Source: a virus
IMG/VR virus record: IMGVR_UViG_3300045988_109877
Coordinates: 1-61,784 of that record
Length of the DNA: 61,784 nt
Reading direction: 5' to 3' (one strand)
Made by a program: the position numbers and the translations under genes. Shown one piece after another: positions 1,267-59,399 of this stretch (position 1 is the first letter of the stretch; each line of letters opens with the position of its first letter). Below the pieces are notes generated by a model. It was given only the letters and a program-made list of their open reading frames with translations. It searched no databases and was not told the DNA's origin.

Positions 1267-2157
1267 TTAGATTATGTCAAAAATGTCCAGTTGTCTTGGT
1301 TCTGTCACTCGTCCGGAGGGGAAGAACAATTGCTCGAAGATATGTTCCATACAGGCGACCACAATTGAGTTGCCTGCGAGCTTGTATTGCTGGGACTCCG
1401 AGATGTACATCGGCTTCCCGTTCTTCCTGTGGCCCTTGACGTAGTTTTTGATTTTGTCGTAGTCCTCGTCGTCGACATCCATCAGACGGAAACACTCGCG
1501 CGGAATAAGTCTGCGGATGCGATATGGGAACGTGTCGCCATAGACGTTGTTAGGTCTGGCGGACGTGAGGGTTGACCCCACGGATTCGGCGAACTCGGTC
1601 TGTAGTTCTGCTACACCGCTTTTCGCTTTGTCCTGCCTATAAGGTCGCAGATTGTTGTCCTTGTCCACCGACACACCGCAAGGCTGACGGCGAACCTCCT
1701 CCGCTACTCGGCGAACCTCCTCCGCTACTCGGCGAACCTCCTCCGTCTTCGGTTCCAAGACTGCGTTTTCCTCGCCCGTGAGGAGAGTGCCGATGATGTC
1801 TCCCTTGTTGCCCTGTACTCTCCCTCGGCGAGTACAGGATGACGGCTGGGAGATGTTGACCGCACCGAACTCCTCCACCTCCGCAAAGCCTTCCCTTGTG
1901 TTGGCTTTGATGCGCAAAGGCTCAAGCAGCATATTGTCTTTCTGCACGCTTGTGATGGTGTTGGACACACCGTCTGTTCTTGGTTCCATCTGTTGCATAT
2001 ATTTCCTTTGTATGTTAATTCTGTGATTCTCATAATCCTTTCTCAGAAGTTTGGCTTCTTCGGTGCGCTTGGGAGTCAATACATTAGGCTCCCTTCCTCT
2101 GCTCGCCACCACGAACGGCTCGGCGATAGAGACGGTCTCTCCGTGGTTGTTCATCAC
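1267..2157 (-). CDS. C5 DNA methyltransferase, C-terminal segment (TRD-like modules plus motifs IX-X)
   Basis: YRIRRLIPRECFRLMDV (motif IX) and KLAGNSIVV (motif X). The segment begins within a SPTVMNNHG module, so the annotated Met is unlikely to be a natural start. Confidence 0.8.
   Translation of the reverse strand: MMNNHGETVSIAEPFVVASRGREPNVLTPKRTEEAKLLRKDYENHRINIQRKYMQQMEPRTDGVSNTITSVQKDNMLLEPLRIKANTREGFAEVEEFGAVNISQPSSCTRRGRVQGNKGDIIGTLLTGEENAVLEPKTEEVRRVAEEVRRVAEEVRRQPCGVSVDKDNNLRPYRQDKAKSGVAELQTEFAESVGSTLTSARPNNVYGDTFPYRIRRLIPRECFRLMDVDDEDYDKIKNYVKGHRKNGKPMYISESQQYKLAGNSIVVACMEHIFEQLFFPSGRVTEPRQLDIFDII
1689..1746. repeat. 21-nt tandem repeat (about 2.8 copies) inside the methyltransferase gene
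   Basis: GGCGAACCTCCTCCGCTACTC is repeated and encodes EEVRRVA x3 on the minus strand. Confidence 0.9.
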
Positions 2158-2792
2158 AGTAGGAGATACCCCCCCCCACGTTATAAACCTTGCCGCAAGC
2201 GTGGTTGCTCGGATACTTGTTCATCTCAACAATCGGCTTTGGCTCCAACACATACTGAGCAGTGTTGCCCCTTGTCCCCGTGCTGCAATGGATGGTGTTC
2301 GCCACCTCCTTCGTGTGGTAGTTCTCGATTTTGCCTTTTTTGTCGCGTGAGTAACTCACAATCTTAGGATCTTCTTTCATCTCGATTATTTTTGGAATAA
2401 GCCCCCCACCAGTGGGGGTGGTGATAGCAGGAGAGATGCCCTCCGTCTTATACGTTCTATATGCCCGATGTTGACCGCTCTCCACGGTCATCACTCTGTC
2501 CGTCTTCTTCATTGCTTGAATCTTCACTAACGAAATACATACAATTGGCATTCACCCTCGCCTTGATGGTTCCGGCTATGTCGTTGACGCATTGGTTGTA
2601 TGTGTCTATCCATAGCCCCCCCCCTATCAATTTTCGGGAGCATCCGTTGAAGCCGCTTGCCCCCTGTCGCTTGTTTCTTCATTTCTCATTCTGTTTTGGT
2701 CGTAATCTTCCACGATGACCACCCCCCCCCCCCTATATCCGTGGTTGCGGAGGCATCGTGCCACCCCGTTGCGGGATATAATATCCTCACTT

Positions 2793-3785
2793 CTATATTC
2801 CGTCTTCTCGATTACTATAACCTTGTCTGTTTCCATTTCCATTTTCCTCGTCTGCTATAGTTACTATACTTCCGTGGTTCAACATCACCGTCGGAGAGAT
2901 TCCGTCAGTACCGATGACGATACCGCTTATCTGACTCTTCGGATATAGCCTTCCGACACGGTTTATTGTTCTTGGATGTAATTGTCGTCGTTCCTCATCA
3001 CGCCTGCTTGGATTGTCTTCGCTATACCCCCCCCCCTCAGTGTACTCAAACTTGTGGTTGGTGGTGGTTTCAGCATTCCATTTCAGCCGCCCCAATATCA
3101 CGTCAGTCTTAAGATAGTATCTATCCTCGACACTCTCACCGTCGTGGTATGTGACAAGTACGTCACGGAGCCGCCGCTCCAACGGGAACGGCTGAGGAAA
3201 ATCATACTTGATGCCGCTCGGGAACAACTGTGGGAACTTGGCGGACGCATCCTTGCGGATGCTTAACGCGAACACCCTCACACGGTTCTGCGGAACACCG
3301 AAATCTTTGGCGTTTATCTTCTTCCAGTATGTCTTGTAGCCTTGTTCGTCAAGGTAGTCTATCCATCGCTGGAAGTCGGGCATAAACTTCTTGGAAGCCA
3401 ACGCCGCCACGTTCTCGAGTAAAAGGAATGACGGACGCTTCGTCTCTATCGCCCTCCTACACTCCCATAGCAATGATGAGCGCGAACCACTGCCTTCCTG
3501 CAAGCCTCGTTGAAGTCCGGCATTGCTGATGTCCTGACAAGGGAAGCTGTAGGTGAACAAGTCAAAGTCAGACACTCGCTCCCAATCGACCTTGCTTATG
3601 TCACCGTGGTTGCATTCGGCATACTCTGGAAACACGGCATTGTGGGCGGCTATTGCGTCATCGTCAATCTCGCTCCATCCGACAAGTTGGAAATCCGCAC
3701 CGCCAGCGTGGCGCCGTGCGACTCGGCGCAGAGCCATCATCTGCGAGCCATACCCGGCGAACGCCTCAAATACTTTTATTTTCAT
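2793..3785 (-). CDS. C5 DNA methyltransferase, N-terminal catalytic segment (motifs I-VIII) plus the first TRD-like modules
   Basis: FEAFAGYGSQ (motif I FxGxG), FPCQDIS (motif IV PCQ), LLLENV (motif VI), QNRVRVF (motif VIII), then GISPTVMLNHG. Confidence 0.85.
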   Translation of the reverse strand: MKIKVFEAFAGYGSQMMALRRVARRHAGGADFQLVGWSEIDDDAIAAHNAVFPEYAECNHGDISKVDWERVSDFDLFTYSFPCQDISNAGLQRGLQEGSGSRSSLLWECRRAIETKRPSFLLLENVAALASKKFMPDFQRWIDYLDEQGYKTYWKKINAKDFGVPQNRVRVFALSIRKDASAKFPQLFPSGIKYDFPQPFPLERRLRDVLVTYHDGESVEDRYYLKTDVILGRLKWNAETTTNHKFEYTEGGGYSEDNPSRRDEERRQLHPRTINRVGRLYPKSQISGIVIGTDGISPTVMLNHGSIVTIADEENGNGNRQGYSNREDGI

Positions 3786-20170: not shown

Positions 20171-23100
20171 ATGTCAGACAGAATAAAGACGCTATACGGC
20201 CAATTAGTCAGAAATGGCTATGACTTAGGAGGATATGAGAAATTCAATGCGGCGATGCACGATAGCAACCGCAGACGCAGTCTGTATAATCAGCTTGTTG
20301 CGAACAGGGCAGACTTGGGTGGATATGAGAAATTCAGCAGCGTTGTTGAGACTGCACCACGCACCACCCCGAGCGCACCGCAGAAAAAGCGTGATGTAGT
20401 GGCGGACACCATCAATATGCTCCGCACTCCATCATCGCAGTACACGCGACCGCAACAGACACAACAGACTGCTCCGAAGAAAAAGTGGAGCAACGAAGTG
20501 GATGTGTACTCGTCAATGCCTGATGTGGTAAAGCAATATGCGCCTACACCGACACCGCTGAAGACAGACTCATCGGTGTCAATGCGTTCAGCCGCAACAT
20601 CAACGTGGAATGCCGCTGACAGAGCGACTCGTGAAGAATACGACAGACTGCATCCGAAGAAGGAGGAGTCTTTCTGGGAGAGAGCTGCCCGTCTGATGAC
20701 AGACGCAGAGATGGGGATGGGCAACGAGAATATGGAAAAGGCGACCGATATGCTTGCATCGCACTACAAGACTCACGATTTGCAGAAATTGTCCGACCAA
20801 GCGTGGAACGCACTTGGGGCAACGCAACAGAAAAACATCACAGACGAGGCTTATGATGAGCTGAAGCGACAATATCCGCAAGCGACAGAAAAGGAGCTGA
20901 GAGAAGCAGCGGCTAAGGTAGCGAGAGCCAAGAGCGACGAGACGATGTACAACCTTGCTGTGCAGAAGAATATGCCTGACAATGCCATCTCGTTCTTTGC
21001 GCGGAAGATGGCTGAGGGCAACTCTGTCGCAAGTCTGTTCACTGGACTCGCTCGACAAAAGGCAGGTACTGTCGGAGACTTGGCGGCTGAGACCGAAGCA
21101 AATGAGCGGTATGGCAAAAAGCACAAGGTGGCAGGTATCGCCGGTTCTGTAGTCGGTATGGCATCAGACCCACTGACGTATGCGGCTGGCGGTGTAGGCG
21201 GAGCGGCAACCAAAGGAGCGTTGTGGGCAGGAGGCAAGGTCTTGTCAGAGGCGGCAGCACGCAAGATGTCGCAGACACTCGGAGGCAAACTGCTCCTCGG
21301 TGCGGTAGGCGGAGCGGCTAACTTCGGCACGTTCGAGGCAGGCGGAGAGGCTTTCAACCAATACAAGTGGGGCGGTACTCTCGATGTAGACCCTGAGACA
21401 GGCAGATATGTCGTAGGCGATTTCTCGCTCGGCAAGGTGGCATCACAGATGGGACACGGACTCACGATGGGTGGACTTACGGGTGCATTCGGTACGTGGC
21501 TCGGCAATGTCAGCACCAAAGCGGCACAAGCCACGACAAGCACCTTAGGCAAACTTGGGGTGCGTGCAGGTGAGCTTGGAGTAGGGCTTGTCGGAGAGGG
21601 TACTATATTCGCCACGCCAGAGTTCATCACCACGTATGGCGATTACAACGACATCATCAAGTCTGTCTCCGATAAAAATTCCCCCAACTATATTGCCGAC
21701 GACAAAGAGCGGAGCAAGTATATTGCAGAGCTAAAGGCGCAGAGAGGAGAGCGGATGATGGATATATGGCAAGACAACCTTGCTATGATTGCAGGCTTCA
21801 AGGCACAGCACGCAATCAAGTCAGCAGGACGCACCATCTCCGAGCTGGCGGCATCACGCAGAGGCAAGGTCGGATTTGTGGAGCGCATGGGCAGGATGCT
21901 TGACGGGCATCCAAGCCTCGCCCTGAGCAAGGAGGAGCAGGCAGAGTTGGACAAGCACGGCTATGGAGACTTGACACAGATGGTCAAGGAGTACAAGGTG
22001 TATGCTCAAAAGGACGGAGACTTGCCGTACAACAAAATCACGCAGTTGCTCAACGACAAAAACGTAAGCGAGGCGGCAAGGGCAAAGATGTACTACTATG
22101 TCACAGGGCACTCCTTGCCAATGTCGGCAGTGATTGCGTCCAACGTCATTGACAATGGCGATAAGACATACACCGTGCAGTCGTTGGGCGACAATGGTGT
22201 AATCACAAGCAGGACTTACGGGAGCCGCAAGAGAGCGGACTATGAAAAGGCTCGCATCGATAGGCAAGCAGAGCTCAACGGAGTGGCGATGGCAGAGCAG
22301 ATGTTTGACAATATGGACAAAGCCGAGCGGCTAAAGGCTGTCTGCACAAGGCTCGCCCAAGACAAGGGAGTGTCGCCGGAGACACTGCTATGGCTGACAC
22401 ACAAAGACCCAAAGCAGATGACCGCCGCAGAAAAGCGGTGGATAAAAGAGATAGAGGCTGCCGCCAACGAGGATGCTCCGCAGGGCGAGAACGCCACAGT
22501 GAGACACATCAAGGGCGTCATTCTTGACGAGTATGGTGTTGATGTAGACAAGGCATTGCGCAAGGCGGCGGACAGCCGCACCGATGCGGAGAAAACAGCC
22601 ATATCGGCTTACAACAACGAATTGGTGCAGGCGGTCGCAGAGCGCAAAAATGCCATTAGCCAAGGCGAGACGACTGACGCATACAGACGTGGTTACGAGG
22701 CAGACACGCAAGGGATGCGTGATGCCTACGTGGCGCAGATGTATGAGCCGAGCGAGGATAATGCCGAGACACTTAGAGGGGTGGAGTCGCAAATCACGGA
22801 GAGTGCCAAATATCAAGCGGCATTGGAGAGAGACGAGCTAAAGCAGATGACACATAAGGACGGCTCCATACATCTTGCCACGCTTAAAGATAAAGACAAG
22901 GACGGCAATGGCAAGCAAGTGTACATAGTAGACGGCGACATTGTGATGAAGGAAGACGGGAGCGGCATTGACGCAGACGCAAGCAGTAAGAGCGTCATCA
23001 TATACGACCCGGCTACTGGAGAGAAAAAGATGGTGTCACCGACTGCGGTTGACGGCATAGAGTCGCTTGGCGAGGTCAAGACGGCAGAGCAGAGAGAGGC

Positions 23101-26100
23101 GGAGATAAACGCACATATGCAGGACACCATCCAGCGAAGCAAGGATTGGTTGGAGGGCAACGTAGCCAACCCTGTCGGTATGCAGATACAATTGGGTGAC
23201 GGACGTATCGCCACCATAGAGGCGATGCACGAAGACGGTAAGTCAGCCATAGCGACACTCCCTGACGGCACTCAGTTTTTGGTGCCGAATGACGTGTTGC
23301 AGAGAATCGTCAACAACGGGCAGTATGCGGATTACAAAGCGAGGAGAGATGCCGAGGCAAGCAAACGAGAGGCAGAGCAAGGCACCGAGAGCGCACCGGA
23401 GACAGCCACGGAAGGCGGACAGCCATTGCCGGAGGAGGCTTCCCCTAAAGAGGAGGAGCGCAGAGAGTATGCGCAAGGAGACGTGTTTGATGTCGTGGTG
23501 GACGGCAATAAGATGCACGCAGAGATAGTGTCACCAAAGGACGCAGACGGAAGGTTCGTTGTCAATGTGGATGATGGCGAGTCTATGCGCACTCTGTATG
23601 TCACCCCGGAGGAGTTGGCTGCGATGGAATACAGAGAGGAGCCATCGCCAAAGGCGGAAGAAACAAGGCTTGCCACCGAGGATTCCTCGGATAAGGCATT
23701 GGAGAGAGGAGAGACGCCGGAAGAATTGTTGCAGTCAATCAAGGAAAACGAGGCGGCAGTGGCGGAAGCACAGAGGACGGTCGATGCTTGGAAAGCCATC
23801 GTAGGAGAGAAGTCACGCAGAGAGGAAGCCGCCAAAGCGGAAGCGGAGCGCATAGCGACCGAGAAGGCGGAGGCGGAAAGGAAAGCCGCTGAGGAGCGTG
23901 AACGTGCCGAGGCGGAGGAAGAAGCTCGTGTTGAGGCAGAGAAGAAAGAGGCAGAGAGGATTGCCGCAGAAAAGGCTGAGGAGGAAGCTCGTGTTGAAGC
24001 CGAAAGGAAGGCAGAGGAGGAGCGCATTGCTAAGCAGAAGACTGAGGAGAAGGTTGACAGTCCGAAGATTGACAAGCAGGGGAATCCAATTGACGCTGAA
24101 GGCAGACTGATAACTGAGAAAGTTGAAGACATCAGCGATTTGTCTGACGATGATTTCAACAATCCGAAACGTTCTGTTGAATTGCCTAAGATACCGAAGA
24201 ATATAGATAACGCTCTCGGTGCGAACGGCAAGCCTGTTATTATCAAGAAGAATATATTCGAACGGAACAAGAACGCTCATTCAGACTTAACGGCAGAGCA
24301 GAGCCGAGAAATACTTAAAACAGCGCTGTACTCGGCTGATTTGTATGCTAAGAACCAAAAATCCAAGCGCCCATTCAATTGGGTAATTATCAAAACAAAA
24401 GACCACGATGGTAAAAACAAACTTGTCCTCTTGGAAGTTAACGACAACAAGGACAATGTGGAAATTGTGCATTGGCACTATCTTGATGACCGAGGCCTTG
24501 AAAAAATAAAAAAGCAAGCCGAACGTGAGGGCGGGCAACTCCTCATACTGCCTTCTGAAAAAGAAGAGGCTGGTGCCCTTTCCAGCCGTACATCCGACTT
24601 GCCTGCTGACAAAGGTAGTGAAAAGGCGGAGAAGAAGCAAGAAAAGCAGAGCGTTTTTGACAAGGCTAAGGAGATTGCCGACAAGGAGGAGAAGAAACGC
24701 AAGGCTGAGGCTGAGGATGACAAGCCAAAAGAACAGTCGCTGACTGAGGCGGAGCGCAAGGACGCCGAGGAGGTTGCAGGTGCGTTGGGCTATCGTGTGG
24801 AATGGGTGGACACGATGGCGGAGAACGGAACGATAGACGCGGACAAGAAAGTGATCCGTATCGCAAAGGATGCCGAGAACCCGTTGGTGCAGGTGCTGGG
24901 ACACGAGGTGGCGCACGGAGTGAAGCGGATGGACGGTGGCAAGTTCAAGGCTTTGCAGAAGGCGGCTATGGAAGTCGTCGGCGAGAAGGAATGGAATGAA
25001 CGCATCGAGAAGAAGCGCAATTTGAATGCTTATGCCGAGGGGAAACTCGCCGAGGAGGTGACGTGCGACATCGTTGGAGAGGCGTTGAACGACAAGGATG
25101 CGTTGAAGCGTCTTGCCGAGTCGCTGAGAGGAGAGAGGGGCATCCTTGCCCGTCTGCGTGACGCAGTGGTGAGGATGGTCGAGTATTTCAAGAACAGAGG
25201 CGACAAGGAAGGTGTGCGCAGGATGAAGGCCGCCGACAGACTTCTCGCAGAGTTTGAGAGTGCGTTGAAGGAGGGCGTTGCACCAGAGCAAGTCAAGCCT
25301 GAAGGTGTAGACCGCAGTGTAAGGGAGAGCCGAAGCGAGAAGACGGAGTTGACAGCGGAGGAGCGGGAACTGAGGGACAACCTTGTGGAGCGTATGCGCA
25401 AGGGTGGACTTGACGTGGTGACTGATTCGGAAGAGATGCAGAGAGTCATAGACACCGAGAACGAGCGGACAAGGATGATGGGTGCCGGTTCAGTCCGTGA
25501 GCATCGTGTGTACCACGGCAGCGGAGCGGACTTCGATGCTTTCGACCACTCGCACATGGGCGAGGGTGAAGGTGCGCAGGCTTACGGTTGGGGCACTTAT
25601 GTGACCGAGGTGGAAGGTATCGGCAGGACGTATGCTATTCAGAATACAACGAAGCACAACGATGCTTTACGTGCATTGCAACACGATGTAGATGCTATAT
25701 CTGACCAACTTAACAGACACCGGGATGATTTGAAGTATGACGAAGAACAGCTAAAACGTGCTAACGAATGGAGAGCCGAGGCTGAACTTGACTATGAATT
25801 GTTCAGAGATGAAGCTGAGAAATTAAAGGAAAAATATGGGGAGGCTTCTCCTAAATACCGAAATCATCTGTTTAATGACATCTATACAGATGAAATGAAA
25901 CGTGCTCAAAGTTCAGTTAAGAGCACAGAAAAGTCAATCCAGTATCGCAAGGAGAAAATAGCAGAGTTGGAAAAGGCATTAAAGGATAAGCAAGCGGAGA
26001 TTGATGAACTGCCGAAGGAGTTTCCACGCCACCTTTACACCGTAGAAATCCCCGATGACAACGGCAGCAACTATCTGGATTGGAATGGACACCCTGCTGA

Positions 26101-29100
26101 ATCTTTACTGAAAGATGTAGGTTCGTTTTTGGAGAGTGAAGGCTTTGAGAGGGTACAGGATGATAACCCTGCCAGATATGAGAAAGGCGAAAGCACCGTT
26201 GTTTTGAACCCCAATGCGACTGGAGCTGATTTGTATGCGGAATTGCGTGAGGCTCTTGGCAGTGACAAGAAAGCGTCACAAGCATTGGCTGAGTTAGGCT
26301 GTATTGGTATCAAATATCCTGCTGACAATATGCGAGGTGGCCGTGAGGATGGCGCAAAGAACTACGTTATCTTCAACGAGAATGATACGAAGATAACCGC
26401 CCATACACGCTTTCTGCGGACAGCAGGCGGAGAGGTGTACGGCTTGGTGAAGGACGGACGCATATACCTTGACCCAAAGGTGGCTACAGCGGAGACTGCG
26501 GTACACGAATACACGCATCTGTGGGGCGATATGCTGAGACGCAAAGACCCAGAGCAATGGAGCCACACGGTGAAGGAACTGAAGAACAGCGTTCTTTGGG
26601 AGGAAGTGAAAGAGTCGTATCCGGAGCTGAAGACCGATGACGAGATAGCGGACGAAGTGTTGTCGACGTTCAGCGGACGCAGAGGAGCGGAACGCTTGCG
26701 CGAGGAGGCACGTAGGGTTGCCGATGGCGAGGGCGGAGTGTTCACCAAGGCGAAGGCTATCGAGACGTTGGAGCGAGTGAAGGAAGCCATAGCGCGGTTC
26801 TGGGAAGGCGTGGCGAGGATGTTCGGCATCAACCGCTACCGCAGTGCCGAGGAGTTGGCTGATATGGCTATGAGGGACTTGCTTGACTCCAAGAATCCTA
26901 TGAAGGATGAGAGCGGAATGAGAAAGCGAGGAGAGGTTGGCGAGACGCTTGCCACGTCAGGCACATATTTCAGCGGAGGCGGACTGCTTGAAGCAGGTCT
27001 GAAAGGCGTGATAGACCCGAAGGTTGCGGTTGAGTTCAGCGAGAAGATAGCAGGAGTGTATGCCGACAACCACGGCAACCACATTGTTGTGGCAGACGTG
27101 AGGGATGTTGACCCCAAGAAACTTGTGGGCGCGGTTGACGGAGGCGAGGTGCAGTACTTCCACGCATCTCCGGTGTGCAAGAACTTCTCCAAAGCCAAGC
27201 GAGAGGGAGGCGAGGTTGAACTTGACAAGGAGACAGCGTTGTCGACAGCCGAGTTTATAGCGAAGACAAGACCGAAGGTGGTGACCATAGAGAACGTAAA
27301 AGGCTACCGCAACAGCGAGGCGTTGAAAATCATCACTGACGAGCTTACCCGTCAAGGATATGACTGGGATGCCGATGTGTACAACGCGGCAGACTACGGA
27401 GGCTATACGAAAAGAGAACGGCTGATAGTGCGAGCCAAGAGAGACGGCAAACTTCCTCCCAAGCCGGAGAAACTTCCCGAAGAACTGAGGAAGAAGGGAT
27501 GGTATAGCGCGGTGGAAGATTTGATTCCACACCTTGAAGAGAAAAAGACAGGTGTTCCGCAAGGCACTGACGAGCGGTTGAAGAACAGCGGAATAGACTA
27601 CCGCACCATTGACAAGCCTTTGTATGTGTTCGGACGTGGCTATGCCAACAAGACCGTAGGGCACGCTTTTGCCGATGAGCTTCTGCCAACGCTCACCACC
27701 GGAGGCGGAGACATCATAATAATGCCTGACGGCAGGGTGCTTAAAGCGTCACCGAGGGTGCTTGCGAGAGTCACTGGGCTGCCCGACACGTACAAGATGC
27801 CTGAGACAGACCAATTGTCGCACACCATAGTCGGCAACGGCATCCCAACGCAGTTGACCGAAGGTGTCATCGCTCCTTTGCTTGACAATGCCATTCCGTC
27901 TGCCGAGCGAGCCACCAAGCGTGAGAGCGTGTTTGACGTGGCGGATAGAGTGTCGCAGAACCTTGAGGAGCGGACGAGGGCGATGGCTGAACGCATTGCA
28001 GAACAACCTGTTGAAGAAATAAACAATCGGTTTAATGAGGAGCTGGAGAAGTACCAAAACAACGAATTGCCAAAAGGCCATCGCTTTGAATTAGGTATGC
28101 CATCAGCAGAGTTGCAAAGTGCTGGTTTCCCAACGCTCCCAATAAGTATGCGTTCTTCGTTGTTGGCGAAAAAAGCCGGAGCGGAGAGACATCCTTTTGC
28201 CCCCACTGACTTACGAGACTTGGTAAACGCAATACAGAAACCTATAGCTATCTTCAATTACTCTAAAAATAATATGCGCAATCTGATTGTAGATGTATCG
28301 CGCGGAGGAAAGCATTTCTTGGTTGGAGTGACACTCAACTATAAAGCAGACAATATAGAAATAAACAGTGTTTCTGGATTATTTCCTAAAGAGAACCACG
28401 AATGGATAAAATGGATTCAAGATGGAAAAGTATTGCGAATAGACCAAAAAGAAAAGGTTCAAGACCTGATTAACAGTCTACGGACTAATCCCGCTGAGTC
28501 TGAAAGAATCGGTTTGAACCTTGATGATGTGGCAAAGAAAGTGAAAGATTTTGAAAATCCCAAGCTTTTTGATGGAAAAATTTCAGAAGTAGACAAAAAG
28601 GGTTCAGATTCAACCGACCGCTCCGTCAGAGAGAATCCCAAAAACGAGGATAAGCCACGCTTCAGCAGAAAGCCGGGCGAGAGCATCTTCGACTATGCGT
28701 CACGTGTGTCGGAGGACGTGGATAGAAGCGTGAGAGAAAGAGTAAGCGCACGGGACGAGTATGAGAAGAAGGTCAAGAGCAAAGGCTTCCAAACGAAGGA
28801 GGCGTTGCAGAACAGTATGCTCGGACTACAGGAGTTTATGCTTGCAATAGACCACGCATCGGGCAACAAGCGGTACATAGAGGACATTCCCGACTTTGAG
28901 AATCCGATACTCGGAGAGAACCGCCTGTCGTCGGTGAACAAGGAGGAGATGCACCAAGTTGCCAAGACGCAATTCAAGCCGTTGATGTCGGCAGTGGCCA
29001 AACTGAGCGGCAACGGCAAGGAGAGCGGAGAATTGTACGACTATATGTTCGCCAAGCACGGACTTGAACGTGATGCCGTGATGCGGCAGAGAGAGGCTCA

Positions 29101-31834
29101 GAAAGAGTTTGACAAGTACCAAAAGGCAAATCCCAAAGGAACTAAAACGATTGGGGATTTCGTTGCAAGCCTTGAAGGCAAAGACTATGCAGGACTTACG
29201 GCATTGACGGCAGAAGACGGCAGGGTGAAGTCGATACAATCGCAGATAGACGCCATAGACGAGCAGATGAAGGCTACAGACGACCAATTGTTGCTCCGTA
29301 AACTCGGTGGTCAGAAGAAGCGGTTGAAGGTGGATTTGCTCAACGCCGCAAGGGATGCCGCCGATGACATCCGCAAGGCTTTTGAAAACAATCCGAGCCA
29401 TGATCGGTCAGACATAAATGAATTGTGGAGTCGAGTAAACGAAGTGAACGGCAACACAATTAGGAAGTTGTATGAGAGCGGTATGCTCACGAAGGAGGCA
29501 TACAACGACATCAGCAGTATGTATACGAATTATATCCCTATGAGGGGATTCGACCAAACGACAAGCGCGGATGCCTACGCTTATCTGACGCACGGCGACA
29601 GCGCATTCAACGCACCGATAAAGACAGCCAAAGGGCGCAGCTCCAAGGCTGACAATCCTATAGCATATATGCAGGCGATGGCGGAAAGTGCGATAATGCA
29701 GGGCAACCGCAACGTATTGGTGAAACAAAAGATGTTGAACTTTGTGCGCAACCATCCGAGCGACCTTGCGAGTGTCAGCGATGTGTGGTTGCAATATGAC
29801 TCGGTTGCAGATGAGTGGAAGCCGGTGTTTCCCGACAATATCGGTGCCAATGACAGCGCATCTGTGGTGGCGAAAAAGATGGAGGCATTCGAGGATAAAA
29901 TGAAACAGATGGCAGAGAAACACCCGGACTTGGTGCAAAGAAGCAACGAAGCACCTGACATCCCATATAAGGTGGTAGAGAAAGGGCAGTTGAACGAACA
30001 CCAAGTGCTTGTGAAGCAAAATGGCAAGTCTTACATCATCACAGTCAACGGCAGCCCAAGAGCGGCACAGGCAGCGAATGGCTTGACGAATCCGGACACA
30101 GACCTTACGGGCGCAGTCGGTAAAGTCTTCGAGGGAGCCGAGGCGTTGAACAGACAATTGTCCTCCTTATACACCACGTTGAACCCCGACTTCATTGGCT
30201 CAAACTATGTGCGAGATGCCTTGTACTCAAATACAATGGTGTACGTCAAGGAAGGAGCTAAGTATGGTGGTTCCTTTAATCTCAATTTCGCCAAATACAA
30301 TCCAGCGGAAATGGCGAACCTATATGCAAGTTACAACAAAGGCAGCCTTGACACATCCAATGAAACGCATAGACTGTTTTTGGAGTTTATGCAGAATGGC
30401 GGAGAAACTGGCTTCGTGAACCTAAAGCAGATAGAGAAGAGGAAGTCGGAGATAGCGAAAGCAATCAAGCGGGATGGGAGAATATCCGCGGCACAAATTT
30501 GGGGCGGTTTGAGCGATGCCGTTGATTTCGCCAACAGGGCAGTAGAGAACAGCGCAAGGTTTGCGGCATATGTCACGTCACGGAAGAGCGGACGCAGTGT
30601 AGGAAGGTCAGTATATGACGCAAAAGAGATTTCTGTCAACTTCAACAGAAAGGGAAGCGGCTCTAAATTTATGGGAGCGGAAGGACAGACCAAGGCAGGA
30701 AACGCCGCCGCTTTTGTGTCGGGAGCCGGAAGAGGCTTGTATATCTTTTGGAACGCAGGTCTTCAAGGACTCACTAACTTCTCAAGACAGATAGGGAGAC
30801 ATCCTGGCAGAGCGTTGACATTGGCGTCATTGCTGTTTGGCTTTGGTGCATTGATGTCGTATTTAGGGAATAGAGACGATGACGATGAAAACAATTACTT
30901 CAATCTTCCCAAGTATATCCGCAGAAGCAACGTCTGCTATAAGATTGGAGATTTGTTTGTCACGATTCCCCTTCCCGTTGAGTATCGGTCATTCTATGGA
31001 CTTGGAGAATTGGCGAGCAGCACACTTGCCGGAAAAGAGGACGGAACGACAAAAGACATCGCCAAAGAAGCGGTTTCACAAGTATCGCAGTTGTTCCCTA
31101 TTGACTTTGCAGAAGGAGGCGGAGGACTGCACGCATTGATTCCGAGTGCCGTAAAGCCGATAGTAGAGGCAGAAACCAACACCGCATGGACAGGTCTGCC
31201 GATTTATAAGGACAATGATTTCAACAAGAATATGCCAGAGTACACGAAAGTGTATAAGACCGCCAATAGGCATCTTGTTGAGATAGCGAGAGCGTTGAAC
31301 GATGCCACAGGAGGCAACAAGTACAAAAAAGGCTTTATAGACATAAATCCTGCGAAAATGGAATATGTCCTCAAGGGTATGCTCGGAGGAGCGTTCAGTT
31401 TCCCAGACAAACTTGTCAAAACAACAGAGACGATTATGGGCGACCGTGAATTTGATTGGCGGAACACACCTTTTGCCAACAGATTCGTGAAGAACGCAGA
31501 CGAGAGGACGGAGTACAAGTCTTTGAACGAACAATACTTTAAGTTGAAAGATGAAATGGATGTCGTCAAACAACAGCTGAAAGGCTTTGAAAAAGAAGCT
31601 GATGCCGGGAACGAAAAATACGAAAAGGCTCTGCTTCAATTGGAGGACAGCAAAGATTATGAAAGGTTGGAATTATTCAAGGATTATGAGAAGGAACTTA
31701 AAGGCTTGAACGATGAACTCAAGGAACTAAGGATGTCTCCTGATTATGACAAGGCAGAAGAAAAAGAGTTGCAAAAAGAGATTGCGGAACAACAGAGACA
31801 ATTGATCGACGAGATGAGAGAAATTAAAAAATAA
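20171..31834 (+). CDS. Giant polyvalent protein (3887 aa) with multiple enzymatic modules
   Basis: This is an uninterrupted 11.66-kb ORF. Features by coordinate:
- HEVAH at 24902.
- YHGSGADFDAFD...GWGTYVTE at 25511-25600 (ART-like H/Y).
- HEYTH at 26504.
- C5-MTase motifs at 26950-27900.
- Two related domains of about 130 aa at 24170-24560 and 28010-28460.
- E/A/K coiled coil at 23800-24060.
- Gly-rich hydrophobic segments at 21125-21640 and 30690-30870. Confidence 0.85.
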   Translation: MSDRIKTLYGQLVRNGYDLGGYEKFNAAMHDSNRRRSLYNQLVANRADLGGYEKFSSVVETAPRTTPSAPQKKRDVVADTINMLRTPSSQYTRPQQTQQTAPKKKWSNEVDVYSSMPDVVKQYAPTPTPLKTDSSVSMRSAATSTWNAADRATREEYDRLHPKKEESFWERAARLMTDAEMGMGNENMEKATDMLASHYKTHDLQKLSDQAWNALGATQQKNITDEAYDELKRQYPQATEKELREAAAKVARAKSDETMYNLAVQKNMPDNAISFFARKMAEGNSVASLFTGLARQKAGTVGDLAAETEANERYGKKHKVAGIAGSVVGMASDPLTYAAGGVGGAATKGALWAGGKVLSEAAARKMSQTLGGKLLLGAVGGAANFGTFEAGGEAFNQYKWGGTLDVDPETGRYVVGDFSLGKVASQMGHGLTMGGLTGAFGTWLGNVSTKAAQATTSTLGKLGVRAGELGVGLVGEGTIFATPEFITTYGDYNDIIKSVSDKNSPNYIADDKERSKYIAELKAQRGERMMDIWQDNLAMIAGFKAQHAIKSAGRTISELAASRRGKVGFVERMGRMLDGHPSLALSKEEQAELDKHGYGDLTQMVKEYKVYAQKDGDLPYNKITQLLNDKNVSEAARAKMYYYVTGHSLPMSAVIASNVIDNGDKTYTVQSLGDNGVITSRTYGSRKRADYEKARIDRQAELNGVAMAEQMFDNMDKAERLKAVCTRLAQDKGVSPETLLWLTHKDPKQMTAAEKRWIKEIEAAANEDAPQGENATVRHIKGVILDEYGVDVDKALRKAADSRTDAEKTAISAYNNELVQAVAERKNAISQGETTDAYRRGYEADTQGMRDAYVAQMYEPSEDNAETLRGVESQITESAKYQAALERDELKQMTHKDGSIHLATLKDKDKDGNGKQVYIVDGDIVMKEDGSGIDADASSKSVIIYDPATGEKKMVSPTAVDGIESLGEVKTAEQREAEINAHMQDTIQRSKDWLEGNVANPVGMQIQLGDGRIATIEAMHEDGKSAIATLPDGTQFLVPNDVLQRIVNNGQYADYKARRDAEASKREAEQGTESAPETATEGGQPLPEEASPKEEERREYAQGDVFDVVVDGNKMHAEIVSPKDADGRFVVNVDDGESMRTLYVTPEELAAMEYREEPSPKAEETRLATEDSSDKALERGETPEELLQSIKENEAAVAEAQRTVDAWKAIVGEKSRREEAAKAEAERIATEKAEAERKAAEERERAEAEEEARVEAEKKEAERIAAEKAEEEARVEAERKAEEERIAKQKTEEKVDSPKIDKQGNPIDAEGRLITEKVEDISDLSDDDFNNPKRSVELPKIPKNIDNALGANGKPVIIKKNIFERNKNAHSDLTAEQSREILKTALYSADLYAKNQKSKRPFNWVIIKTKDHDGKNKLVLLEVNDNKDNVEIVHWHYLDDRGLEKIKKQAEREGGQLLILPSEKEEAGALSSRTSDLPADKGSEKAEKKQEKQSVFDKAKEIADKEEKKRKAEAEDDKPKEQSLTEAERKDAEEVAGALGYRVEWVDTMAENGTIDADKKVIRIAKDAENPLVQVLGHEVAHGVKRMDGGKFKALQKAAMEVVGEKEWNERIEKKRNLNAYAEGKLAEEVTCDIVGEALNDKDALKRLAESLRGERGILARLRDAVVRMVEYFKNRGDKEGVRRMKAADRLLAEFESALKEGVAPEQVKPEGVDRSVRESRSEKTELTAEERELRDNLVERMRKGGLDVVTDSEEMQRVIDTENERTRMMGAGSVREHRVYHGSGADFDAFDHSHMGEGEGAQAYGWGTYVTEVEGIGRTYAIQNTTKHNDALRALQHDVDAISDQLNRHRDDLKYDEEQLKRANEWRAEAELDYELFRDEAEKLKEKYGEASPKYRNHLFNDIYTDEMKRAQSSVKSTEKSIQYRKEKIAELEKALKDKQAEIDELPKEFPRHLYTVEIPDDNGSNYLDWNGHPAESLLKDVGSFLESEGFERVQDDNPARYEKGESTVVLNPNATGADLYAELREALGSDKKASQALAELGCIGIKYPADNMRGGREDGAKNYVIFNENDTKITAHTRFLRTAGGEVYGLVKDGRIYLDPKVATAETAVHEYTHLWGDMLRRKDPEQWSHTVKELKNSVLWEEVKESYPELKTDDEIADEVLSTFSGRRGAERLREEARRVADGEGGVFTKAKAIETLERVKEAIARFWEGVARMFGINRYRSAEELADMAMRDLLDSKNPMKDESGMRKRGEVGETLATSGTYFSGGGLLEAGLKGVIDPKVAVEFSEKIAGVYADNHGNHIVVADVRDVDPKKLVGAVDGGEVQYFHASPVCKNFSKAKREGGEVELDKETALSTAEFIAKTRPKVVTIENVKGYRNSEALKIITDELTRQGYDWDADVYNAADYGGYTKRERLIVRAKRDGKLPPKPEKLPEELRKKGWYSAVEDLIPHLEEKKTGVPQGTDERLKNSGIDYRTIDKPLYVFGRGYANKTVGHAFADELLPTLTTGGGDIIIMPDGRVLKASPRVLARVTGLPDTYKMPETDQLSHTIVGNGIPTQLTEGVIAPLLDNAIPSAERATKRESVFDVADRVSQNLEERTRAMAERIAEQPVEEINNRFNEELEKYQNNELPKGHRFELGMPSAELQSAGFPTLPISMRSSLLAKKAGAERHPFAPTDLRDLVNAIQKPIAIFNYSKNNMRNLIVDVSRGGKHFLVGVTLNYKADNIEINSVSGLFPKENHEWIKWIQDGKVLRIDQKEKVQDLINSLRTNPAESERIGLNLDDVAKKVKDFENPKLFDGKISEVDKKGSDSTDRSVRENPKNEDKPRFSRKPGESIFDYASRVSEDVDRSVRERVSARDEYEKKVKSKGFQTKEALQNSMLGLQEFMLAIDHASGNKRYIEDIPDFENPILGENRLSSVNKEEMHQVAKTQFKPLMSAVAKLSGNGKESGELYDYMFAKHGLERDAVMRQREAQKEFDKYQKANPKGTKTIGDFVASLEGKDYAGLTALTAEDGRVKSIQSQIDAIDEQMKATDDQLLLRKLGGQKKRLKVDLLNAARDAADDIRKAFENNPSHDRSDINELWSRVNEVNGNTIRKLYESGMLTKEAYNDISSMYTNYIPMRGFDQTTSADAYAYLTHGDSAFNAPIKTAKGRSSKADNPIAYMQAMAESAIMQGNRNVLVKQKMLNFVRNHPSDLASVSDVWLQYDSVADEWKPVFPDNIGANDSASVVAKKMEAFEDKMKQMAEKHPDLVQRSNEAPDIPYKVVEKGQLNEHQVLVKQNGKSYIITVNGSPRAAQAANGLTNPDTDLTGAVGKVFEGAEALNRQLSSLYTTLNPDFIGSNYVRDALYSNTMVYVKEGAKYGGSFNLNFAKYNPAEMANLYASYNKGSLDTSNETHRLFLEFMQNGGETGFVNLKQIEKRKSEIAKAIKRDGRISAAQIWGGLSDAVDFANRAVENSARFAAYVTSRKSGRSVGRSVYDAKEISVNFNRKGSGSKFMGAEGQTKAGNAAAFVSGAGRGLYIFWNAGLQGLTNFSRQIGRHPGRALTLASLLFGFGALMSYLGNRDDDDENNYFNLPKYIRRSNVCYKIGDLFVTIPLPVEYRSFYGLGELASSTLAGKEDGTTKDIAKEAVSQVSQLFPIDFAEGGGGLHALIPSAVKPIVEAETNTAWTGLPIYKDNDFNKNMPEYTKVYKTANRHLVEIARALNDATGGNKYKKGFIDINPAKMEYVLKGMLGGAFSFPDKLVKTTETIMGDREFDWRNTPFANRFVKNADERTEYKSLNEQYFKLKDEMDVVKQQLKGFEKEADAGNEKYEKALLQLEDSKDYERLELFKDYEKELKGLNDELKELRMSPDYDKAEEKELQKEIAEQQRQLIDEMREIKK
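26950..27900 (+). other. Embedded C5 cytosine methyltransferase domain within the polyvalent protein
   Basis: YFSGGGLLEAG (motif I), HASPVCKNFS (variant of motif IV with Cys retained), VVTIENVKG (motif VI), YTKRERLIVRA (motif VIII-like), VGNGIPTQL (motif X). Confidence 0.7.
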
Positions 31835-57972: not shown

Positions 57973-58818
57973 TTAAAGCTCTGTTTTCTCGTTTACTCGT
58001 TCGAACCGCTTGCACGCAGGGCGCATCTGCGATGCGTTGTATGAAGGCCACTTGCAATGTCCTTTTGCGGCGACCTCGTATCTGTAGTTGGCGCACACTC
58101 CACAGCAACGGAACTTGTCTGCCTGTGCCACGCTGATGCTCTTCAGCTCTCTTATGGCAGCGTCAATGCAAGCCTCCAATGCCGCCCGCTTGCGTTTGTT
58201 CACTTCGTTCACCTGTGCTGCCACGCTCTTCTCCTCGATGGCGATACACGCTTTTTGTATCGCTACGAGGTTGTTGATGCTCGGAGGGGTTATCTTCAGC
58301 GGCACTTCCGCGCATGCGGCTGCAAGACGTTCTGTGTATTCCTCGGCAAACTCAATCGCCATAAGCGAGAGAAACCGCACCACCTCACTCTGTGCGTTTA
58401 TGTCGGAATCCTCGACATCGTAATTGAGAGAGCGGATAAATTCCTCCACATTAAGGCGGAGGAGCGAGAACACCTTCTTCGTGTCCTCGAAGAAGCGGTA
58501 TTCTAAGAACTGCATCAATTGCAGTTCCGCACCGAACATTCCTCCAGTCAACTCCTTGTTGAGAGAACGAATGGCGTTGCCGAGGTCGCAACTGACACGC
58601 TTGTAGATAAGTTCTCCTCTGTTGTTGGTCTTGAAGTTGAAGCATAAATAGCGGAGCCTTTCCGCCTCACGGATCGTGAGCAGTGCAATGAACAATGGTT
58701 TAAGCACGAGGTTTCTGACCTTGCACGGCTGGAGCGGTTTTGGTGGCAGCTCTGGAGCCACGGCAGTGCGTCTTGCGGTCGCTGCCGTCAGTCTGATGGG
58801 GAATAGTATCATTGACAT
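57973..58818 (-). CDS. Hypothetical protein (281 aa) with a C-terminal Cys cluster
   Basis: CCGVCANYRYEVAAKGHCKWP...RPACKRF suggests a zinc-binding tail. The function is otherwise unknown. Confidence 0.5.
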   Translation of the reverse strand: MSMILFPIRLTAATARRTAVAPELPPKPLQPCKVRNLVLKPLFIALLTIREAERLRYLCFNFKTNNRGELIYKRVSCDLGNAIRSLNKELTGGMFGAELQLMQFLEYRFFEDTKKVFSLLRLNVEEFIRSLNYDVEDSDINAQSEVVRFLSLMAIEFAEEYTERLAAACAEVPLKITPPSINNLVAIQKACIAIEEKSVAAQVNEVNKRKRAALEACIDAAIRELKSISVAQADKFRCCGVCANYRYEVAAKGHCKWPSYNASQMRPACKRFERVNEKTEL

Positions 58819-59399
58819 TCGTTGATAAATCGTTCTTGTTGTTTCTGGAAAAATTCTTTGTTTATCTCACAACCTACAAAGTCAAAGCCGAGATTATACG
58901 CGGCTATCCTTGACGAGCCACTGCCTAAATGCGTGTCAAGAATCTTGTCGCCTTGCTTTGCAAAGGTCTTAATGAGATATTCGTATAAAGCCACAGGTTT
59001 CTGCGTTGGGTGTATACGTTTCTGTCTGAATAGATGACTGAATAGTTTCGCTGGCGCATTGAACGATGTCCACAAGTATTCGCACGCAGAAAAGTTCTTC
59101 CACGGCTGTCGCTTGTCCCACACAACGAAACATCTGCAAGGAGGAAGATCGAAATAGTTTCCACCGCAAATTATCTGATTCTTCGACACGCGGAACAACT
59201 CCTGGAAATATTCATCCGTAGGCGGAATATCCCATTCCATCGGCATTGTGTTCAACGCCCTTATGCACTTCTTGCCTCCTGTAATGCCTGCGCCACTCGC
59301 TTTAAGACCATAAGGAGGATCGACAATGGCTAAATCAAAAGCCTTGTCGGGGAGAGTCCGCATATACTCTATGCAGTCAATGTTGTACGCTATATTCAT
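58809..59399 (-). CDS. Beta-class N6-adenine/N4-cytosine DNA methyltransferase
   Basis: AIVDPPYGL (motif IV DPPY) precedes ILDTHLGSGSSRIAA (motif I). This is the N-4/N-6 MTase order. Confidence 0.85.
   Translation of the reverse strand: MNIAYNIDCIEYMRTLPDKAFDLAIVDPPYGLKASGAGITGGKKCIRALNTMPMEWDIPPTDEYFQELFRVSKNQIICGGNYFDLPPCRCFVVWDKRQPWKNFSACEYLWTSFNAPAKLFSHLFRQKRIHPTQKPVALYEYLIKTFAKQGDKILDTHLGSGSSRIAAYNLGFDFVGCEINKEFFQKQQERFINECQ

Follow-up and report, generated by a model that had tools for sequence, protein, structure and literature searches.

Layout and reading frames of the methyltransferase locus

The 61,784-nucleotide virus sequence IMGVR_UViG_3300045988_109877 from IMG/VR, analysed over its whole length and referred to here as the window, carries a cytosine-C5 methyltransferase (C5-MTase) locus on its minus strand (3785-1267), with matches to the Pfam family DNA_methylase (PF00145) at both ends. 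Rather than a single disrupted gene in need of repaired frames, the locus is a split alpha/beta gene with five poly-G tracts. The open reading frame (ORF) at 3785-2793, called alpha here, matches profile positions 2-227 (E = 4.9e-48) and contains motifs I (FAGYGS), IV (FPCQD), VI (LLENV) and VIII (QNRVRVF). The frame of the C-terminal part (minus strand, scanned over 1270-2220, with its stop at 1267) matches profile positions 252-322 and contains motifs IX (RRLIPRECFRL) and X (AGNSIV, 1360-1377), as expected for the C-terminal part of a C5-MTase. Motif VIII lies at 3270-3290 and motif IX at 1483-1515, in agreement with an original prediction that about 1.75 kb separates them (the gap is ~1,754 nt). 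The stretch between motifs VIII and IX is not open in any frame, and the ten motifs are not found on a single polypeptide.

Between these two motifs lie ~10 modules of 45-65 amino acids (aa) that resemble target-recognition domains (TRDs). With f0 defined as the frame of the ATG at 3785, and f1 and f2 named relative to it, all nine of the predicted T-[LIV] signatures are present, in the order f0, f1, f0, f1, f1, f2, f2, f2, f2. The estimate of about nine modules held for these nine but missed a tenth, which sits in f1. The signatures are as follows.

3002-3028, minus strand: tenth signature GIAKTIQAG, f1 (alternative frame)
2871-2903, minus strand: GISPTVMLNHG, f0
2723-2767, minus strand: GVARCLRNHGYRGGG, f1
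2559-2579, minus strand: IAGTIKA, f0
2402-2440, minus strand: GISPAITTPTGGG, f1
2264-2305, minus strand: VANTIHCSTGTRGN, f1
2140-2169, minus strand: (G)VSPTVMNNHG, f2
1933-1971, minus strand: GVSNTITSVQKDN, f2
1765-1797, minus strand: IIGTLLTGEEN, f2
1546-1581, minus strand: VGSTLTSARPNN, f2

The modules are collinear with the in-frame modules of intact homologues, and the proposal of a C5-MTase whose variable region is unusually long and made up of TRD-like modules is supported. Each later frame is opened by a conserved, overlapping downstream ATG, and the locus therefore consists of four ORFs, with the following elements.

2793-3785, minus strand: ORF-1 ('alpha'), 330 aa, intact, with motifs I-VIII, tract 1 and module 1 (GISPTVMLNHG)
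2966-3026, minus strand: module 0, GIAKTIQAGVMRNDDNY, f1, read only when tract 1 is G9
2627-2842, minus strand: ORF-2, a mini-ORF of 71 aa in f1 with its own ATG, in phase, with module 2 (GVARCLRNHGYRGGG)
2460-2682, minus strand: ORF-3, module 3, with its head MKKQATGGKRLQRMLPKIDRGG in f2 and its body LWIDTYNQCVNDIAGTIKA... in f0, out of phase
2084-2512, minus strand: ORF-4, the head of 'beta' (MKKTDRV...), 142 aa, with modules 4 and 5 and the beginning of module 6, ending after tract 5
1267-2168, minus strand: rest of beta, f2, with modules 6-9 (VSPTVMNNHG, GVSNTITSVQKDN, IIGTLLTGEEN, VGSTLTSARPNN) and motifs IX and X
1688-1745, minus strand: 21-bp in-frame tandem repeat coding for EEVRRVA, 2.8 copies (Tandem Repeats Finder), within the linker that precedes module 9

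The window has alpha ON with module 1 and ORF-2 ON (71 aa, G12), and both ORF-3 and beta OFF. The 330-aa alpha protein is found unchanged on 11 public contigs, and clusters at 90% identity hold 132 member sequences for alpha, 72 for ORF-2 (68-71 aa) and 47 for beta; an exact look-up of the 296-aa C-terminal ORF returned no record. ORF-2 overlaps the end of alpha by ~47 nt, and a phmmer search with it against 1.84 billion representatives returned only eight close short relatives, together with three weaker matches (P0129 and P0131, which are repeat proteins, and P0130; relatives are cited throughout by our own L and P handles). ORF-3, which yields a 51-aa product with the G9 tract present here and requires G8 or G11 for phase, has homologues in L027, as an intact mini-ORF, and in P0012, as an in-frame module. 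Read in f1, module 0 outscores 498/500 shuffles against the corresponding segment of P0012 and 496/500 against that of P0089, whereas read in f0 it does not; BLASTP alone found nothing for this module.

The original prediction also implied that correcting the frames would restore a single enzyme, which would be of 835 aa. This was not supported: no combination of tract lengths yields one ORF, and six independent assemblies share the same frame structure. The expectation of a multispecific enzyme survives in part: the locus derives from a many-module candidate multispecific MTase but does not encode a single chain here. Reading the ancestral protein through takes six frame changes, two of them at tracts (3 and 5); the other four fall outside homopolymers, at module boundaries with overlapping stop and start codons:

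near 2970, minus strand: boundary frame change f1 to f0
2857-2796, minus strand: boundary frame change f0 to f1
2685-2630, minus strand: boundary frame change f1 to f2
2551-2460, minus strand: boundary frame change f0 to f1

These boundary changes are retained in relatives of 90-97% identity, and each module is free of nonsense codons in its own frame. TAG, TGA and TAA all occur among the interrupting stops, and the rest of the window's genes, an ORF of 3,887 aa among them, are intact. Because the frame changes are kept, the stops mixed and the other genes intact, both recoding and a general assembly error can be set aside as explanations of the frame structure. A search of 5.8 billion proteins brought up no intact protein beyond ~630 aa among close relatives, and none of ~835 aa.

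We also considered two specific forms of recoding. Stop-codon reassignment is ruled out by the mixed TAG/TGA/TAA stops and the normally read other genes. Programmed +1 frameshifting at the junctions was rejected in view of the lack of a slippery context; in the permuted arrays described below, the P-site GAU would be unable to re-pair at +1.

Poly-G tracts and their variation among relatives

The key feature of the locus, which the original prediction missed, is its hypermutable poly-G tracts together with the alpha/beta split. Each of the five tracts codes for the Gly-Gly-Gly loop of one module:

3027-3036, minus strand: tract 1, G10; lengths 7, 8, 9 and 10 among relatives
2722-2733, minus strand: tract 2, G12, within module 2; 6, 7, 8, 9, 10 and 12 among relatives
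2616-2624, minus strand: tract 3, G9; 7, 8, 9 and 10 among relatives
2405-2410, minus strand: tract 4, G6, in phase; mostly 6 among relatives, also 7, 10, 11 and 12
2169-2177, minus strand: tract 5, G9, setting beta OFF; 8-11 among relatives

The window contains four G/C homopolymers of at least 7 nt, all of them coding-strand G in the variable region; elsewhere, G/C runs reach 6 at most. Runs of at least 9 number four, against 0.095 expected from a first-order Markov simulation. GGG is the rarest glycine codon in the other ORFs (9.5% of Gly codons), and none of the six other Gly-Gly-Gly sites in the window uses GGGGGGGGG, as compared with pure G runs at all five sites here. Furthermore, G/C runs of 5 or more are absent from the intact 727-aa homologue P0089, which is present on 17 contigs. 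Given this excess of runs, the rarity of GGG and the lack of runs in P0089, the poly-G tracts are therefore a selected, lineage-specific property and not a by-product of glycine coding.

Tract 1 switches the C-terminus of alpha between three outcomes. With G10 or G7, alpha continues through a 20-aa out-of-frame linker into module 1 (330 or 327 aa); with G9 it reads module 0 and then stops (273 aa); and with G8 or G11 it stops immediately (253 or 254 aa). These products, predicted in silico, match those found in relatives with lengths 7, 8, 9 and 10. One-G changes in silico likewise switch ORF-2, ORF-3 and beta as well as the alpha tail. The beta of the window is a single G away from being intact: shortening tract 5 from G9 to G8 in silico creates a 414-aa ORF that reaches motifs IX-X, and both G8 and G11 join ORF-4 to the frame of these motifs. 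Thus, as in a contingency gene, the length of coding-region homopolymers, here five of them, sets the reading frame.

The second property of a contingency gene, tract length that is polymorphic among near-identical genomes, is also present. Across ~30 public assemblies of this phage family, tract lengths differ while the flanking DNA is nearly identical, and nearly every lineage has its own combination. Four contigs whose 477-aa beta proteins are identical (L137, L138, L139 and L140) show 0 single-nucleotide polymorphisms over 2,677 bp outside the tracts and one to three tract differences, with tract 1 at 8/10/8/8, tract 2 at 8/7/7/8 and tract 3 at 9/8/10/7. Similarly, L005 and L007 differ at two tracts and are otherwise identical over their shared 1.7 kb. 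Outside the tracts, the sole indel among near-identical contigs is the copy number of the 21-bp repeat. Length change at the tracts thus far outpaces sequence change in the flanking DNA. The combination seen in the window (10, 12, 9, 6, 9), together with the same stops, is found in six assemblies from different samples and assemblers, and this recurrence in five other assemblies indicates that the tract-length calls are not noise. In addition, two contigs terminate within a tract, which hints at reversible switching in a clonal population. Scans with the tract-5 pattern gave no further contigs among viral contigs, and five further real contigs plus six chance matches among metagenomes.

The 21-bp repeat itself varies from one to three copies of EEVRRVA, with two versus three in near-identical contigs and one in P0002. 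P0003 reads this stretch in a different frame (SSGGGSPSSGGGSPS), for which a downstream shift compensates.

Each ORF state is represented among the relatives. Alpha is found at 330, 328 or 327 aa, at 273 aa and at 253 aa, and beta at 384-504 aa. Both are intact in L009, L010, L138 and L141-L143, and a 253-aa alpha accompanies an intact beta in L117, L137, L139 and L140. The conserved ATG at window position 2512 starts an intact beta in L009, L010, L117, L125, L137-L144 and P0005, and it heads an intact beta of 461-504 aa with motifs IX-X in P0005-P0009, P0147 and P0149. Wherever tract 5 joins ORF-4 to an intact beta or a single chain, its length is G8 (L010, L016, L117, L125, L137-L144); L009 and L011 have an intact beta and lack tract 5 through an E-F deletion. 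ORF-3 is in phase, in a 73-aa form, in L129, where tract 3 is G8. The arrangement corresponds to that of split alpha/beta enzymes, with overlapping ORFs, motifs I-VIII on one and IX-X on the other, and the break in the variable region.

A single-chain form, which the window with its four ORFs does not have, occurs in L016, P0001-P0003 and P0089. Three of these forms reflect deletions with end points at tracts: L016 encodes an intact chain of 622 aa after a deletion from tract 1 to tract 4, P0002 one of 538 aa after a deletion from tract 1 to tract 5, and P0001 one of 590 aa after a third such deletion. Recombination at in-frame junctions has also produced longer beta forms, in P0004 (494 aa, from the ORF-2 ATG) and P0123.

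Selection on the modules and architecture in relatives

Synonymous and other substitutions were compared, per segment and frame, among relatives of 90-97% identity. Synonymous excess was found as follows.

Segment A (alpha), f0: p about 1e-25
Segment B1, f0: p = 3e-4
Segment B2 (ORF-2), f1: p = 0.013
Segment C2 (ORF-3 head), f2: p = 7e-4, with none in the overlapping f1
Segment E, f1: p = 2e-9
Segment F (rest of beta), f2: p = 2e-26

The modules are thus selected, each in its own frame, and these frames are shifted against one another. Together with the nonsense-free frames, this pattern of substitutions argues against a long-dead pseudogene, although it is no proof of present activity.

The modules are described as TRD-like on the grounds of their position, size, signature and collinearity. 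Module 9 together with motifs IX-X aligns to GIGPTLTASGAN...RYLTPLECF of M.MpeI (4dkj), in which the TL motif stands just before motif IX. A profile built from 13 GISPT..GGG sequences matched the TRD core of M.HhaI in the PDB (residues 237-258, including T250), weakly (E = 0.3) and among spurious designed repeat proteins, and modules 4-8 gave no meaningful sequence match to the PDB. An AlphaFold model of P0001, based on an alignment of 60 sequences, places the core at a predicted local distance difference test score (pLDDT) >80.

Distant homologues encode intact single chains of 638 aa (P0012), 672 aa (P0067), 738 aa (P0076) and 727 aa (P0089). These align to the repaired query at 33-37% identity with 99-100% coverage, and have matching types of module in an identical order, every one of them in frame. 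From this collinearity we conclude that the ancestral architecture was a single chain. Two further methylase homologues, P0010 (628 aa) and P0060 (895 aa), contain Hint/intein-type domains (PF07591, PF13403, PF14890), which suggests intein insertions in the family.

Divergent split relatives are found in Bacteroidales and other gut genome bins. In L041 (16-nt overlap), L042, L065 (both ATGA), L043 and L076, both ORFs are intact, the stop and start overlap or are closely adjacent, and the variable region has no poly-G; similar splits with a G8-G9 tract nearby occur in L047, L056 and L063. Judged from such sequences, natural alpha/beta splits are common in this methylase family. Two further loci from Bacteroidales bins show comparable fragmentation: L039 (5400-7600) has an equally fragmented multi-module variable region with six poly-G tracts of 7-10, and L088 has four tracts. 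A third Bacteroidales locus, L053 from the cultured Paramuribaculum intestinale DSM 100749, comprises three ORFs, with a G8 tract, and its last ORF contains at least five in-frame modules. In Muribaculaceae, a related methylase with G8 just after the catalytic domain is intact in four genomes (L068, L069, L072, L073), and in the complete Muribaculaceae chromosome OX620685 (L080) the same site is G10 and the ORF stops there. This difference between G8 and G10 points to the same kind of poly-G switch in isolate-level genomes.

Another group of relatives is permuted (L020-L032, L038, L055, L060-L062, L074, L075 and L079; for example L027:3617-6623). Their catalytic domain is ~50% identical to that of the window, and a single ORF carries motifs IX-X followed by I-VIII, with no TRD and no TL-type module at its end. 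After the core come arrays of TRD-like mini-ORFs, up to 11-13 in number and each of 46-62 aa, some of which also precede the core in L030. Nearly all of these mini-ORFs end in ...IEYD* or similar, and 5 nt upstream of that stop lies the ATG of the next (GAATATGATTAA). Steps along the arrays are mostly +1 frame shifts, related phages reorder the same modules, and the mini-ORFs are under purifying selection, with a ratio of nonsynonymous to synonymous polymorphism (pN/pS) of about 0.29.

These junction ATGs (GAATATGATTAA), the pN/pS of the mini-ORFs and the cores without a TL-type module raise the idea that TRD mini-ORFs are separate plug-in recognition subunits of 50-75 aa that dock onto a TRD-less catalytic core. 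This idea, which we regard as rather doubtful, would cover ORF-2 and ORF-3 and, more strikingly though again as a quite speculative reading, the arrays of 8-13 mini-ORFs that follow the permuted cores in gut phages. An engineered split into large and small domains, which did not complement (PMC5944983), weighs against it.

Phage context, interpretation and alternatives

The contig is viral, as shown by its IMG/VR relatives of 41-63 kb and the presence of ERF, DnaB and a polyvalent protein. The nearest relatives of the catalytic domain in cellular bins are mostly Bacteroidales (50-59% identity), and the locus is also found on contigs of 212-221 kb, L137 and P0149 among them, which suggests a prophage. 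The locus is an orphan C5-MTase of a gut phage that is probably temperate and probably infects Bacteroidales. GenBank phage records contain no close relatives (megablast found nothing, and blastn a single 240-bp match at 65%).

Two further regions of the window carry methylase-related genes, and a repeat lies at its start:

20171-31834, plus strand: 3,887-aa polyvalent protein with LPD13, ART-PolyVal, C5 DNA_methylase (aa 2267-2567), MuF_C and LPD38 domains
58809-59399, minus strand: 196-aa ORF whose match to the N6_N4_Mtase profile is limited to the C-terminal part (140-217 of 221)
57973-58818, minus strand: 281-aa ORF with no Pfam match, overlapping the 196-aa ORF
1-321: 18-bp tandem repeat, 17.8 copies, consensus ACAGTCGCATTGTCGCGG, 82% matches, read as (SRTVAL)n in one frame

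The C5 domain of the polyvalent protein gives the phage a second cytosine methylase, one that is probably delivered with the virion, and the 196-aa and 281-aa ORFs may be another split or partial methylase.

Several known systems resemble parts of this arrangement. The Bacillus phage enzymes M.SPRI, M.Phi3TI, M.Rho11sI and M.H2I are orphan C5-MTases with tandem TRDs of ~40-60 aa between motifs VIII and IX; they carry three to four TRDs on one chain of 440-500 aa and are presumed to protect against several restriction systems. The present locus is likewise a phage orphan C5-MTase with tandem modules between VIII and IX and a presumed anti-restriction role, but the likeness is one of architecture, and it differs in its ~10 modules, four ORFs and five poly-G switches. 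Phase-variable MTases based on simple sequence repeats include the Type III mod phasevarions, the NgoAV hsdS poly-G system, and the poly-G/C MTase genes of Helicobacter and Campylobacter. As in these systems, slippage at a coding homopolymer would shift the frame and turn the product ON or OFF or alter its specificity. The known examples are, however, bacterial, and usually one tract switches a whole enzyme, whereas here a phage gene carries five tracts in different modules, and tract 1 picks either module or none.

M.AquI, for its part, is naturally split into an alpha subunit (motifs I-VIII along with a portion of the variable region) and a beta subunit (the rest and IX-X) encoded by overlapping ORFs (PMC3404938). 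The present locus shares the overlapping ORFs and the break inside the variable region, but M.AquI is monospecific, stable and part of a restriction-modification system, whereas this locus has multiple breaks, two mini-ORFs between the halves, and extents set by homopolymers. Complementation between fragments has also been reported for M.BspRI, M.HhaI and M.SssI. In circularly permuted C5-MTases such as M.BssHII and M.Alw26I, the TRD is kept in the chain, in the order TRD-IX-X-I..VIII (PMC5944983). The distant relatives described above (L020-L032 and others) resemble them in having IX-X before I-VIII in one ORF but differ in lacking a TRD in cis and in being flanked by TRD mini-ORF arrays; the gene in the window, unlike the permutants, has the canonical motif order.

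In light of the natural splits and M.AquI, frame breaks in the variable region need not inactivate the enzyme and may instead change which modules are attached. The best reading of the locus is thus a hypermutable, M.AquI-like split and candidate multispecific methyltransferase, caught in a beta-OFF state. We consider it somewhat probable (roughly 0.6) that its function is the stochastic variation of the phage's 5-methylcytosine (m5C) repertoire. A single-chain ancestor with many tandem TRD modules would have become a split, hypermutable contingency locus. Its alpha and beta products, by analogy with M.AquI and fragment complementation, may reassemble non-covalently into an active enzyme, with the modules on either half setting the methylated motifs. 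Each change in tract length would toggle one ORF or module, and replication slippage at the tracts would generate phage subpopulations with differing methylation repertoires, including none. Such mixed repertoires could serve as bet-hedging where some hosts use Type II restriction and others methylation-dependent restriction. The tracts may double as deletion junctions that remodel the array.

A number of points weigh against this interpretation. Beta is OFF in the window and in about half of the sampled lineages, which also fits neutral tract drift in a dispensable gene. ORF-3 is in phase in only a few contigs out of ~20 (L129 and L138 have tract 3 at G8), and the reading does not account for the two mini-ORFs, which carry neither half of the catalytic core. 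The sequence link of the modules to solved TRDs is weak, both in the score of the M.HhaI match and in the result for modules 4-8. In the AlphaFold model of P0001, pLDDT is <50 over most of residues 213-507 (213-331 and 380-439), and TRD lobes cannot be counted. Finally, an engineered split between the large domain and the TRD plus motif IX did not restore activity by complementation in M.MpeI or M.SssI (PMC5944983).

Among the rival explanations, relaxed selection and decay is the main one, although on balance we think it unlikely. On this account the phage is losing a multispecific MTase inherited from its ancestor, the poly-G tracts are mutational hot spots, and the frame changes are fixed indels that inactivate the gene and serve no function. 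The six frame changes needed to read the ancestral protein would fit such a decaying pseudogene, as would a beta that is OFF in the window lineage, L005, L007, L012, L015, L017 and L018, an ORF-3 that is almost never in phase, and two other methyltransferase genes in the phage that could make the locus dispensable. Decay is harder to reconcile, however, with an alpha that is intact (253, 273 or 327-330 aa) in nearly all relatives examined (L017 being the exception) and with states in which alpha and beta are both intact, which are common. Moreover, all module frames are nonsense-free with synonymous excess in their own shifted frames, the frame changes are confined to module boundaries and tracts and are kept at 90-97% identity, and the pure-G coding of five out of five Gly triplets defies the codon usage of the genome. 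The out-of-frame modules could alternatively form a store of silent cassettes that are recombined into the expressed alpha and beta. The deletions between tract end points that gave rise to L016, L014, P0002 and P0001, the in-frame junction recombinants P0004 and P0123, and the permuted relatives, in which the same modules are reordered between conserved junctions of ~20 nt, are all compatible with this scheme. Yet all modules lie in direct orientation, such that recombination would only delete and be irreversible within a lineage; the gene lists of matching contigs show no recombinase beside the locus; and junction recombination keeps frame offsets and cannot alone bring a module into frame. 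We therefore regard a cassette store as improbable. A diversity-generating retroelement or an invertible shufflon is likewise disfavoured, as only repeat lengths vary and the modules all point the same way.

Two further rivals were considered. RNA polymerase slippage can arise on long homopolymers, and the modules are collinear with intact single-chain homologues, such that a polypeptide of ~835 aa might still be made through transcriptional slippage, programmed ribosomal frameshifting or both. This is very unlikely: the four frame changes outside homopolymers lack a slippery heptamer or a known +1 context (GGAAAATGGAAATGG, AGAATGAGAAATGAAG and the like), six consecutive events would give a negligible yield, and the conserved ATG of each downstream frame heads independently called ORFs in relatives; stop-codon reassignment is excluded as set out above. 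That homopolymer length errors have been introduced into an intact gene by sequencing or assembly has in its favour that poly-G is error-prone on some platforms and that two contigs break at tracts. It is nevertheless scarcely credible, given identical tract lengths in the six assemblies from different samples and assemblers, differences of as much as 4-6 nt between lineages (12 as against 8 or 6), four frame changes away from homopolymers, and no other broken gene in the window.

Orphan methyltransferases are a main route by which phages escape restriction, and to our knowledge the way in which gut phages handle the huge, shifting restriction repertoire of Bacteroidales has been little described. 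In the literature searched, we found no description of TRD arrays, an alpha/beta split and homopolymer switching together in a phage. The alpha/ORF-2/beta family is abundant in public gut metagenomes. Loci of this kind will be wrongly annotated by gene callers and by pipelines for 'frame repair', and will be entered as pseudogenes or hypothetical mini-proteins. Should the plug-in reading of the mini-ORFs also be true, it would describe a combinatorial, multi-subunit m5C-methyltransferase with individually switchable parts, comparable to the Type I S subunit, in which each module has its own start and stop and often its own poly-G tract. The locus itself suggests that multispecific TRD arrays, split enzymes and homopolymer phase variation have been brought together in a stochastic specificity switch that operates module by module.

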